This document shows, one piece after another, positions 2,604 through 32,870 of a DNA stretch of 64,000 nucleotides (positions are counted from its first letter, which is position 1; each line of letters starts with the position of its first letter). The notes under the pieces are model-generated. The model saw only the letters and a list, made by a program, of their open reading frames with translations. It was not told the origin of the DNA and did no database searches. Made by a program: the position numbers and the translations under genes. The stretch is from Eledone cirrhosa (Eukaryota), in the NCBI GenBank assembly GCA_964016885.1, contig OZ024747.1:30752001-30816000 (forward strand). Reading direction: 5' to 3'.

Positions 2604-2668
2604 TATTTTATCTGATGAAAGCGCACAATAATTTGCTTTGGTGTCCTTGAAATATGTATAATGAAATA
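2604..2668 (+). ncRNA. Type I minimal hammerhead ribozyme
   Basis: Stem I TATTTTAT/ATGAAATA. CTGATGA at 2612-2618. Stem II AAG-C-GCAC/GTGT-C-CTT. GAAA at 2649-2652. Stem III ATA-TG-TAT. AUA site after 2660. Confidence 0.8.
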
Positions 2669-3034
2669 AATATGGTTTTATAAATATAGTTTCCATTTGT
2701 TAATATATTGTATTTTTACTCCAAAAATTTGTTGAGTGCTTTATATCAGTTATAAAAATATTTGCTTGTTGTACCCCAACAAATTAAATATAACTTCTAC
2801 ATATACATATATATATATATATATATATATATATATATATTCAGGTTTGAGGTTCACCACTATATAGAGCTGGTCTATTCTGTATGGTCAATCGTAATGT
2901 AATAATATAGAGAGTACTCAACGTAAGGCAGTTCAACCGTCTTTGTTTTTGTAGTTGGTGGTGCTATTACGGAGTTAAATATTATAATGAAATGACAGGA
3001 GGCTGGATTTGTGTAAATCCTTGAAAGGTTTATT

Positions 3035-3092
3035 ATACTATGATCATTTCAATGACTGGGTTCTGTATGAATCCGGTGATATCATCAGGTAT
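3035..3092 (-). ncRNA. Type I minimal hammerhead ribozyme
   Basis: ATAC-CTGATGA-[TATCACCGGATTC/GAACCCAGTCATT imperfect stem II]-GAAA-TGATCA (palindrome)-TA-GTAT. Confidence 0.78.
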
Positions 3093-3888
3093 TCGAAATA
3101 TAATACGTGAATGTAATAGATAAAATCCATGGGGCTGAAAATCGAGGACCCGAGGGCGACCGCTATTCTGTTCCTTCAACCTCAGCCGGTCGCCCTCGAG
3201 TGACATGGCTAAAGTTTATAGTATGCTACTACCGGTCAGATAAACGAAAACAGAAAGGGATGGGAACATACGTTAGCGTCAATCTCATGACACAAGGTAA
3301 AAGAAAGAAAGAAAGGAAGGAGAGAGAAGAAGGAGGAAGAAAGAAGAAGAGAAGCCAGGGTTAATGTCAGCTAAAAGAAGAAAGGCAACTACTACCGTCA
3401 GATATAGGCAAGCAAGAGGGGGAAGGAAGATAAGTCTGCAGGAGGAAGACAGGAAGAGGCGAGAAGAGAAGGAAGAGAAGAGAGAAGTAGAAAAGTAAGG
3501 GTTGATGGCTACAAGAAGGAAGATAGAAAGAAAGAGGAAGAAAGGTCGATATTAATGTCAGACCACAGTCAGGCCAGGAGTGGCGCGAGAAAATTGTCAC
3601 AGGGACCCGCATCTTAGCAGAGGTGAATATATTGGGAGTCAGTGTGTTACAATGTTTAGACTTTTAGGATGAAGTTAAAAAATTAATAATCAATATTCAA
3701 TATTAAAGAGGTTAGAAAATTTAAAGTTCAACAGTTTAACATTTTCAGGTTCATATATCTAATAGTTCCGATTTGTTCTGTAATTTAAAGGTACTATGTG
3801 GCAGTTAAAACACCGGCCGCGCCCCGGGCCCCATGGCGAATTAAGCTACGCCGAGTATTTTCATTTACATATATATATATATGTAAGT

Positions 3889-28900: not shown

Positions 28901-29387
28901 AAAAGACATTGGTCATTTTATTAAATAGTAAATACTATTAATGCTTATTTTATGGTGTTTACTGTTAATGTATTTTGTTTCAGGTTCGTGCATAGTTTTT
29001 TTTATTGCATATCATAATAGTCATTAAGAATTTACATTATTTATATGTTGAAAGTGCTTTTCTTAATATAGGTTTTTTTTATAAAAAAAAAATTAATACA
29101 AACTATATAAATAAATAGATTCCAATAACTGTTTTTTCAGGTGTGTGGGGTTGCATATGATTTATAAAAAGTTATATAGCTAATATTTAACAAATACAAA
29201 GTTAATAGCATTAAAACAAGTTTACAGTTCCTTAAATTTTCAGTGTTCAAAACGCAGAATTGGGGGCAGGGCTATGCGCGGTGTAGGGGTGATCGCATAC
29301 TTTTTAAAATTTTTTAATTTATTTCTTACACCAAACGGAACACCAAGCAATATGTGGAATCAGAATATAACATTTCGAACCTCCCCT
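25924..29387 (+). mobile_element. Decayed hAT-superfamily (hATm-like) DNA transposon with two SINE insertions
   Basis: Imperfect TIRs taagggggggttgaaa / tttcgaacctcccct. Transposase relics at about 26549-28890: CDGTPVNTG, PLQWLICLLHTNEL, VYAP..WF.IK, YFAHPE.ILL.ML.D, INFEA.DY.DLINW, LPCHS.GVE. The SINE at 26365 has the TSD aaaattatataat. Confidence 0.75.
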
Positions 29388-32050
29388 CCCCATTCCCATG
29401 AGTGATGGCAAATGCCCCAAACTCCGAGTTGGCACCATCAATATAAGCACAATGAAAGGAAGAGCAGGAGAAATCATACAGATGTTAGAGCAAAAGGAAA
29501 TTGATGCATGCTGTGTGCAAGAGACTAGATGGAGAGGAGAGTCCGCTAGAGTCCTTGTAGGCAAAAATCAGCACAATGAATTTTTCTGGGTTGGAAATGA
29601 CAACGGTTTGGGTGGTGTAGGTATACTATTAACTGACAAATGGGTAGATAAGGTAATCACAGTAAACAGGGAGAATGCAAGAGTCATTAAACTCAGACTA
29701 GTCCTGAATAAAACAATTGCCACAATCATCAGCTTTCACACCAATCTGGTTTGCCACACAAACTTAATTATAGGTTTTACGAGTCCTTAATGCACACTAC
29801 AGCCCTAACAAACAACAACGACTCCCTACTCATTGCAGGGGACTTTAACGGACATGTTGGGAAACACTGTGATGGCTTTTATAGAGTCAATAAAGGCCAC
29901 AGGTTTGGCACAAGAAATGAAGAAGGCTTCTAGAATTCTGTGACGCCAATGACATGTCAATATGTAACACAAACTTCAAAAAGCCGACAACCATCTGATC
30001 ACCTATAGATGAGAGGAGCATTCTTGTCAGATAGATTTTATCCTTATGAGAGGACGAGATAGATGGATGGTTGAAACACAAAAGTCTTCCGTGGTGAGGA
30101 ATGTACCTCCCAACATAACTTAGTTGTCAGCGACTTCATTGTCAGAACTAGAGTTACTTGGAAAGAGAAGGCAACCTGGAGAAGAAAGATCTGGAAGCTG
30201 AAAGACCCCTCAGCCAGTAACAGATTTAAAGATATCTTACTCAACGCCTATTACAGTAAAGAAGAACAGATTCAATGTAGAAGGGAACAGACGAGATTTG
30301 TGGTTGGAGCAAGACCACAGGAAGGAGGAGAGTGGCTTGGTGGTGGAACAATAAGGTAGATGAGGCAATTAAGGCTAAGAGAATAGTTATGGAAAGAATG
30401 GAAGAACGGGGGAAGCAGGGTACATTACATAGAGACCAGGAGGGAAGCTAGGCGACAGGTATACTAAACTAGAAGGGAAGTGGAGGATAGAAAATTCAAG
30501 CATGTTTTGCAGCGTGAGGATCAGAAACAGGTGTTCAGGATTGTGAGGCAGAGTGTTAGAGAACATTGTGATGTCATTGAAGAGAAGTGTGTCGAGAATG
30601 ATAAAGGTGAGCTTGACCTCACAAGTGCTGAGAAGAAAGATGCGTGGAAGAGCCATTATGAAAGATTACTAAATGAGGGGAATGCATGGGAAGAAGAGAC
30701 CCTATCCCAAGTAGACCCTATAGAGGGGCCAGCAGTACAAGTCAGCAGCAGCGTATTAAGTAAGGCAATAAAAAATATGAAGACTGGGAAGGCAACCGGT
30801 CCATCGGGTATAGCTGCCAAGATGCTGAAAACATGTCGGTATGTCACACCATAACCACACGTATTGTTAACCAGGTAATACTAGAAGGTGTCATACCAAA
30901 GGATTGGTGCAGCAGCATAATTGTCAACTGCTACAGAGGTAAGGGAGATGCACTAGATAGAGGAAACTATAGAGGTATAAAGTTGATGACCAGGTCATGA
31001 AAGTAATGGAAAGAGTTATAGCACAGCTGATTAGAGATGGAGTAAATCTAGATGAGATGCAATTCGGGTTTGTGCCAGGCAAAAGCACCACTGATGTTCT
31101 CTTCCTTGTGAGGCAGTTACAGGAAAAGTACCTAGCTAAAAGTAAGCCACTCTACCTGGCATTTGTCGATCTGGAAAAAGCCTTCAATAGAGTGCCCTGT
31201 GCTATAATATGGTGGGCTCTTAGAAAACTAGGAGTAGATGAATGGCTTGTGAAGGCTGTACTAGCCATGTATAGAGGAGCAGTCAGCAAAGTTAGGATTA
31301 GCAATGACTATAGCGAGGAATTTCTGAAAGTACAGTAAGCAGGGTAAGTAATGGGATGGACGATGTTCAGGAAGCTACTACCACTGCTAGCTGCAAAAGG
31401 CTTTTCCCTCAAAATGAAAAGCAGACTGTATGCATACGAACAGCAAAGTATAAACGAATTGAGTGTAAGAGATTGAGCATAAGAGGAATCAAATGCTGTG
31501 TGCAGGAGAGGAGGTTGCATTCATATGGACATGTGATGCGTATGAAGGATGACAGCTGCATAAAATGGTGCAGATCACTAAGAGTCGATGAAGTCTTGGA
31601 GTGGGGAGACCCAAGAAGACCTGGGATGAGGTGATTAAAGCTGACCTTGCCCAATTGCATCTCTAAAAGGTTATGACATAGGACCATGACCTCTGACATC
31701 ATGCAGTAATACAGAAGACCCAATTTCCCATGGGTACAAGCCAAAGCTGAAGCATTTAGACAATATGCCCCCATCCTCTCCCACGGCTAAGTGGTCCTGT
31801 AGGTGTCTGGACAAAAAAGCACCCAGCCCACACTGTAAAGTGGTTGTGTAGGCGCCATGATAAAAAAGCCTCCAGTTCTCACTGTAAATGACGTTGGTGT
31901 TAGGAAGGGCATCCAGCTGTAGAAATCAAGCCAAAATCAGTTCCCGTATGAGCAAGACAAGGTCACCCGACCTGGCACTGCCCACAACAGGACAACACAT
32001 CTAACCCATGCTAGCGTGGAAGAATGGACGTAAAACAGTGATGATGATGA
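29388..32050 (+). mobile_element. Decayed, internally deleted RTE LINE
   Basis: APE and RT fragments homologous to 4245-7499. The sequence jumps at about 31330 over the YADD/PHD region. 3'UTR and (GAT)n tail present. Confidence 0.92.
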
Positions 32051-32552
32051 TATATATTATTAGCACAGATTGAAATTTTAAGCAAACAATTTCTGCTTTC
32101 ACCTAAAGCTATATATACATATGCTATAATGGCGATCATGTGTATTGTATGGCAGAGAAAACTGACCACTTTAAAGAAATCATTTATACAGGTTGTTTGG
32201 TACATTGACAACCATGTACCTTGGTATTAATTCAGTTTCTGTGAACAAAATACATTGACAACCCATTGATTGATGAGAGGCTACACAAGAAAATACTTGC
32301 CCAAGAGGCACAGAGGTAAATCACAAGACCACAAGCTTGCAAAGTAAACTTCATAACCACACAGAAATGACTTCACACACATACACAAATATAAATCTCT
32401 ACATCTCTCTCTCACTATACACACACACACACACACACACATATATATATATATGACCAAAAGTTAAACAAGGTTCATTGATTAATCAATGAATATAGTT
32501 TTACAATAGATTAGAAGCACTCAACAAATAAGTTTTCTGGAGTTATTAATAT

Positions 32553-32870
32553 TAATTCCAAATATTAATAAATATAGACATTCGTGTGATCAAATATATT
32601 TTATTATATATATTTCAGAGGTACTGTGCTGTTTCCTCAGTACGTCCTCATTAGATAAAATAAATTGATGTCTGTCATACCTCAACTGTGCTGATGGTTC
32701 GATTCCAGTCTTGGTAGGACTGGAATTGAACCATCAGCACAGTTGAGGTATGACAGACATCAATTTATTTTATCTGATGAGGACGTACTGAGGAAACAGC
32801 ACAAAACCTCTGAAATATATATAAAATATATTTGATCACATGAATGTCTATATTTATTAATATTTGGAAT
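32553..32870. mobile_element. Fold-back element (about 155-bp arms) with an HHR in each arm (32597-32662 -, 32766-32830 +)
   Basis: Minus arm: TATTTTAT-CTAATGA-GGA-C-GTACTG/CAGTAC-C-TCT-GAAA-TATATATA-ATAAAATA. The plus arm has CTGATGA but damaged stems. Confidence 0.85.

Follow-up and report, generated by a model that had tools for sequence, protein, structure and literature searches.

Hammerhead sites of the window

The stretch of the Eledone cirrhosa genome analysed here (contig OZ024747.1, positions 30,752,001 to 30,816,000; 64,000 nucleotides, hereafter the window) carries hammerhead ribozyme (HHR) sequences borne by Penelope-like retroelements (PLEs). Four sites, starting at 2604, 3035, 24499 and 32597, share a common layout, namely stem I, CUGANGA, stem II, GAAA-U, a 4-nt loop, AUA and stem I again. 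In all four, stem III consists of A15.1-U16.1 plus U15.2-A16.2, as in a type I hammerhead, and AUA therefore corresponds to A16.2-U16.1-A17. At the fourth step of stem II, C10.4 stands opposite C11.4 in each of them; the C·C appositions listed in a preliminary description, AAG-C-GCAC/GTGT-C-CTT (2604), TAT-C-AC/GT-C-ATT (3035), GGT-C-ATAG/TTAT-C-ACC (24499) and GGA-C-GTACTG/CAGTAC-C-TCT (32597), were found as written. The motif, its host element, its copy number and its covariation are direct observations. The explanation retained, with a probability of roughly 55%, is that the sites are dimer-type type I hammerheads located in the 3' pseudo-long terminal repeat (pLTR) of one Hydra-clade PLE lineage and operating as proposed below.

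2604..2668, forward strand: type I HHR of family A, core 2612-2618 intact, C10.4 at 2622, C11.4 at 2645; A17 at 2660, after which cleavage is predicted; stem III extended by 1 bp, loop self-complementary, 4 nt
2444..2508, reverse strand: HHR of family A in inverted orientation, twin of the preceding one; core intact, C10.4 at 2490, C11.4 at 2467; absent from the preliminary description
2397..2711: inverted pair of 5'-truncated PLE 3' ends, arms 84% identical, adjoining (TA)n
3035..3092, reverse strand: type I HHR of family C, intact core starting at 3088, C10.4 at 3078, C11.4 at 3054; U·U mismatch at step 1, A17 at 3039, palindromic loop III
24499..24555, forward strand: decayed HHR of family E2 (C3U and G12A), C10.4 at 24513, C11.4 at 24536, A17 at 24551
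32597..32662, reverse strand: decayed HHR of family B (G5A), C10.4 at 32644, C11.4 at 32620, A17 at 32605
32766..32830, forward strand: HHR of family B in inverted orientation, twin of the preceding one; core intact from 32774, 3' strand of stem II and stem I damaged
32549..32876: inverted pair of 5'-truncated PLE 3' ends, arms 93% identical, beside (TA)n

The type I core CUGANGA/GAAA/NUH is intact at 2604, 2444 and 3035, with only N7 free. All four sites had been said to cleave at AUA; the triplet is indeed present in each, but the cores at 24499 and 32597 are broken and cleavage is therefore only predicted. None of the four matched in an Rfam search at E ≤ 1, and minimum free energy folding of the four copies gave z-scores of -0.5 to -2.0, with alternative folds.

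Genome-wide occurrence of the motif

Exact patterns that do not require pairing were searched in the 3.0-Gb genome. The AUA-type core motif occurs 85,897 times, against 174 matches for the reversed pattern. Step 4 of stem II is C·C in 55,804 of these motifs (65%), against 0 matches for the reversed form of the C·C pattern, which is far beyond chance. It is C·U in 22,410 (26%), C·A in about 3,134 (~4%, obtained by subtraction) and C-G in 353 (0.4%), the latter scattered over families. C10.4 is kept in 95% of copies, the non-C forms numbering 4,196. Because this C faces C, U or A genome-wide, the fixed feature is an unpaired C10.4 and not C·C as such, which amends the statement that C·C stays fixed; a Watson-Crick consensus at step 4, named beforehand as the contrary outcome, was not found. 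Of the C-G and non-C10.4 matches, the first 100 listed are mostly single-base variants across the same families, as would be expected from the decay of dead copies.

Allowing other letters at N7 brings 36,785 further matches (control 3,777), of which many belong to the same families, and within the 5' core only N7 varies, by subfamily. The mismatch is absent from the genome's remaining HHR families (16,973 matches, control 2,629). Combined with GUH, C·C gives 257 matches in this genome, fewer than its reversed control (1,380). When contigs of three organisms were compared with family D, no variant reached 5% at 10.4 or 11.4, cover being thin in X5. Outside animals, viral and prokaryote contigs gave 82 matches to the pattern, none of which folds as an HHR.

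Host element

In larger loci, just one open reading frame (ORF) lies upstream of the motif, and the copies are the truncated ends of ORF-bearing elements (C and E2 being without a linked ORF). Non-LTR retrozymes, i.e. tandem non-coding repeats of 150-400 nt with a canonical HHR, were rejected as an identity for this reason. The copies are mostly 5'-truncated and inverted, and they end at (TA)n, 45-60 or 130-210 nt beyond the predicted cleavage site. P0001 (821 amino acids), a full ORF upstream of family D, contains RLRW(T), DKT, YRDD and a CxCX5C linker, with CxxC..E and N..CxH around a C-terminal GIY-YIG. These motifs match the definition of the Hydra clade, which relies on an RWK-like motif, DKT, a CxCX5C linker, CxxC and CxH surrounding E and N, plus a GIY-YIG at the C-terminus (PMC8557442), and P0001 is therefore assigned to Hydra-clade PLEs. 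The ORF of family E1 has all Hydra-clade motifs except a match to the RW regular expression. The assignment is based on motifs and (TA)n, and the trees comprised homologues only. A Pfam search gave no family for P0001 or for the Argonauta homologue P0007, P0001 having no match at E ≤ 0.01. Many endonuclease (EN) copies of P0001 are 97-100% identical.

Proteins could be linked to families A, B, D and E1, the E1 motif lying about 1.2 kb downstream of the ORF in 9 of 14 loci. The ORFs beside family C (L023) and beside E1 (L303), first taken as theirs, were rejected as nested neighbours. The reverse transcriptase (RT) of D is 60-62% identical to that of A, identity to E1 being 52-53%; C10.4 is thus retained across RTs only 52-62% identical. 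In the tree (27 of about 57 rows), the protein-linked families are all found on the same side of a branch with a support of 85/92, and P0007 groups with the elements of this genome. A single clade of mismatch families is neither shown nor rejected by these sequences. The four families initially described do differ in their stem sequences, but they are probably not independent, the protein-linked ones lying on one side of that branch.

Covariation and conservation

The fetched loci yielded 172 motifs falling into 42 clusters, 23 of which have at least two members. In these 23, step 4 is never a standard pair, whereas steps 2, 3, 5, 6 and 7 are paired in 22 or 23. Twenty-eight cluster representatives were aligned; the 14 clusters left out include seven C·C or C·U ones that are near-duplicate or degenerate, the remainder being considered below. 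The covariation score of the 28 rows is 0.637, against 0.30 for shuffled and at most 0.174 for slid alignments. Double-sided changes occur in 11 of 14 pairs over three stems, stem I being open, and are far fewer in the slid controls. As previously noticed, the surrounding pairs covary while step 4 stays unpaired. Indeed, steps 2, 3, 5, 6 and 7 each show 6 to 14 double-sided changes, whereas 10.4-11.4 is paired in none of the 28 rows. Parsimony on a rough tree of these selected rows gives 0 changes at 10.4, 2 at 11.4 and 2-8 at other stem II columns, the zero depending on row selection and the unbiased figure being the 95% of copies given above.

Step 4 takes three states in the alignment (24 C·C, 3 C·U and 1 C·A) and step 1 takes seven, with G-C in only 3 of the 28 rows. 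Helix II carries 20 G·U/U·G cells in the sense of the ORF strand. Repair of step 4 would stabilise stem II by 5.5-6.4 kcal/mol, and no family has it. Stem II measures 7-12 bp, and its loop is unalignable between families. Variants of loop III stay self-complementary, with an 8-mer self-duplex of -2.2 to -10.5 kcal/mol, as would be expected for dimer cleavage. Pairing of C10.4 with G8 or G12 and alternative registers of stem II were also considered and rejected, since they are broken by variation at N7 or 10.3 (by eye).

The AUA triplet and related ribozymes

The outgroup comprised 77 metagenome loci with related ORFs and 42 distinct HHRs, the filter requiring paired steps 2-3 and rewarding pairing. 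Step 4 is paired in 39 of the 39 Hydra-like HHRs having a fourth step, through six pair types, C-G being the commonest. The triplet is GUA in 31 outgroup HHRs and AUA in 2, both paired at step 4. AUA without the mismatch is found in L231, L251 and Drosophila willistoni, and it is not absolute in the subtype either, as 4 of the 28 aligned rows end in AUC. Since AUA occurs elsewhere without the mismatch and shared descent suffices, a functional link between them is not supported; both most likely go together by descent. From the sequences compared, the mismatch is the lineage-specific trait and AUA is not new. Indeed, AUA is natural in eggplant latent viroid (ELVd) (PMC1636495), and U10.1·U11.1 is also already known (PMC3088659). 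An AUA end mimicking (TA)n for priming was ruled out, families C and D having non-TA loops.

Several relatives display features of their own. A sister Hydra-like family (L354:457-580) has GUA, some 100 nt inserted in stem II and, by eye, what looks like a C·A mismatch at step 3. At L312:3022 and in other families of this genome, a single 3'-side bulge sits just above step 4 of stem II, which suggests a recurring kink at that height. A min-HHR family (L300, reverse strand, index 1073) shares its 5' stem II letters with E1, yet carries a C-G pair, and may represent a pre-mismatch state or convergence. At L099:4600-4800, run X4 (kind not recorded) has A>G at 7 places and T>C at 8, versus 1 and 1 in X1 from the same organism, a pattern resembling A-to-I editing on both strands of inverted copies, ribozyme included.

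Other elements of the window

Two tandem HHRs of another family lie 474 nt apart on the reverse strand (18056-18137 and 18530-18611). They have GUA, a long branched stem II that is fully paired and a palindromic loop III, and provide an in-window control without the mismatch. An inverted pair of a further family (40445-40526, reverse, and 41357-41438, forward) has GUU, a palindromic loop III of 6 nt and a mismatched step 1. The HHR at 25239-25314 (forward), a sub-threshold match to Rfam HH9 (28 bits, gathering threshold 52), is a U3-A8 core variant with a long palindromic stem III. From their motifs, we take 4245-7526 (reverse) to be an intact LINE-like ORF of 1093 amino acids with apurinic endonuclease (APE) and RT domains, and 34386-36569 (forward) a broken relative; 53543-56196 (forward) presumably holds Helitron-like fragments and 63110-63778 (forward) an LTR-type RT fragment.

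Possible roles of the unpaired cytidine

In the explanation retained, two tandem copies would pair via their self-complementary loop III, giving an extended stem III, and the precursor RNA would then be cut after AUA; this dimer cleavage of a tandem precursor is inferred from the literature (PMC4209133; PMC6765202). The ancestral pair at step 4, often C-G in relatives, would have been opened once, after which selection would have maintained the opening, preserving C as such at 10.4 and leaving 11.4 free to be C, U or A. Selection on the mismatch is highly probable: unpaired bases are those expected to drift fastest, repair would add about 6 kcal/mol and relatives always pair there. With a lengthened stem II and a freely varying loop, the canonical dock between loop II and stem I would have been lost. 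In extended hammerheads, the loop on a 4-bp stem II docks onto U1.7 (PMC11875169). Here, the 1x1 loop, within one step of docking height, could act as a hinge or backbone-docking point for a parallel fold of stems I and II. This is the preferred mechanism, albeit a tentative one, and it is favoured because the only conserved irregularity of the long stem II lies within one step of that height. AUA would simply combine the U15.2-A16.2 pair with the A17 typical of the clade, having been inherited alongside.

Several observations weigh against this reading. Small U10.4 subfamilies recur among the listed non-C10.4 matches, many in CpG context, and may be true small subfamilies or CpG decay. The clusters left out of the alignment include five non-C10.4 ones, all from a search requiring non-C10.4, and two C-G singletons (one the deleted twin of a C·C copy, the other degenerate). 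The changes at 11.4, only about 3, make the rule "never G" weak taken alone, the examined loci yielded no ORF belonging to C, E2, G or H, and a single origin would mean n=1, with a clade support of only 85/92. Related HHRs with long, fully paired stems II manage without the mismatch, and no hidden tertiary contact was seen in a Schistosoma min-HHR according to one figure legend (Cervera 2014, PMC4209133, Fig. S6). No stem I column is invariant, columns 1.6 and 1.7 changing 7 and 5 times; U1.7 is present in 21 of the 28 rows, in which C10.4 is conserved. As families C, E, G and H also have short stems I, U-richness being limited to A, B and D, the base-specific contact with a U-rich stem I put forward initially is not retained.

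A close rival, nearly as likely as docking, sees C10.4 as a mark for protein recognition or a flexible hinge, to be read by the RT-endonuclease, or by a host chaperone or ligase, for RNA loading, with catalysis unaffected. The base is specifically conserved without an RNA partner, and the usual 3' end, at which reverse transcription begins, is 45-60 nt away. Retrotransposition of eel UnaL2 depends on a bulged C and a U-U mismatch of its 3' hairpin (PMC1636434), and PLE HHRs, slow in vitro, have been proposed to need factors (PMC4209133). However, C10.4 has persisted while identity dropped to about 52% in RT and about 45% in EN, and sister Hydra proteins work with paired stems. The mismatch could instead be an attenuator, weakening the part of stem II near the core, where step 1 is often U·U or G·U; the 3' ribozyme would then cut slowly, leaving the tail available for reverse transcription. 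The extension of copies beyond the cleavage site and the energy gained upon repair agree with this idea, as does the slowness of AUA, which ranked last among four triplets assayed in ELVd (PMC1636495). On the other hand, the stem would be weakened by mismatches of any kind, but step 4 has 3 states only, versus 7 at step 1. Attenuation seems improbable.

A frozen accident, i.e. one neutral ancestral G-to-C change never reversed, appears equally improbable. One origin is not rejected by the tree, deep lineages are few, and single published PLE HHRs have a step-4 mismatch (C·A in S. purpuratus, U·U in Clonorchis, by eye); nevertheless, loop II has become unalignable and paired neighbours have changed 2-8 times while the unpaired C, expected to change fastest, has not. 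Least credible by far is a constraint at the DNA level, whether a pLTR promoter element or a cDNA hairpin with an invariant G facing G, A or T. Although pLTRs contain promoters (PMC6765202), the HHR core lies on the ORF strand, in whose sense helix II tolerates its G·U/U·G cells, and the flanking letters vary, unlike those of a DNA-binding motif. 

Returning to the docking and RT-endonuclease readings, the unpaired C10.4 might constitute an undescribed hammerhead module, allowing docking of stems I and II without loop II or acting as an RT-endonuclease site that switches the ribozyme, in about 100,000 copies.

Significance

According to PMC8557442, the role of hammerheads in endonuclease-bearing PLEs is unclear; the ones assayed in vitro cleave slowly, and the published account gives no tertiary contact for them (PMC4209133). 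A conserved unpaired cytidine where related ribozymes pair points to a possible extra function. A non-core nucleotide as conserved as the core provides a one-base handle separating catalysis from protein binding, and still-intact elements exist for assays. About 86,000 exact matches in one genome, missed by Rfam, also form a very large natural mutational data set. If the module reading were true in its RT-endonuclease version, RNA processing would be coupled to reverse transcription; if the mismatch were neutral, the finding would reduce to a lineage marker.

Comparison with known systems

Hydra-clade PLE hammerheads (Craig et al. 2021, PMC8557442, File S2) share with the present ones the host clade, (TA)n targeting and an HHR near the 3' end, together with a frequent step-1 U·U, a weak self-complementary stem III and an H17 that is often A. 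All 26 rows published in File S2, including Hydra-1_oBim of Octopus bimaculoides, are GUH without a step-4 mismatch (by eye), whereas the subtype described here has U15.2-A16.2, a 4-nt loop III, C10.4·H11.4 and a long stem II. The HHR of the D. willistoni PLE, of the min-HHR class (PMC4209133, Fig. S3), has the same step-1 U·U, U15.2-A16.2, 4-nt palindromic loop III and AUA, as well as U-rich or AU-rich stem I flanks and a dimer model. It differs by a fully paired stem II and a host listed as Penelope type, while that of D. virilis has a bulge in helix II and no conserved 1x1 loop (PMC4209133). As for the PLE min-HHR consensus, its short stem III with a palindromic loop is found here but its extra nucleotide after A9 and its conserved G10.1-C11.1 are not; other Hydra forms frequently lack G10.1-C11.1 too, and the present form resembles those of Hydra and D. 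willistoni.

Dimer-cleaving HHR variants associated with PLEs reportedly form a large set. A diminished stem III, the PLE association and dimer cleavage are common to them and to the present subtype (Lünse, Weinberg and Breaker 2017). Extended natural HHRs (Schistosoma Sm-alpha, sTRSV) have the same type I topology and catalytic core, but they dock the stem II loop to stem I through a Hoogsteen contact of U1.7, whereas loop II is distant and variable here. The 3' hairpin of the UnaL2 LINE likewise has a conserved unpaired C acting as a hinge in a retroelement (PMC1636434); it contains no ribozyme, and its function was shown by mutation whereas that of C10.4 is predicted from sequence.

The suggestion of a possibly undescribed HHR variant agrees with the literature covered, in which no description of a conserved step-4 mismatch was found; the Lünse 2017 alignment, which possibly includes the subtype, and Garrett 1996 fall outside this coverage. 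In their available parts, ribozymes go unmentioned in a 2026 Octopus repeat annotation, as do mismatches in a 2026 retrozyme preprint. The known part is thus the PLE-associated dimer-type hammerhead of a Hydra-clade element, and the new part is the conserved unpaired C10.4.

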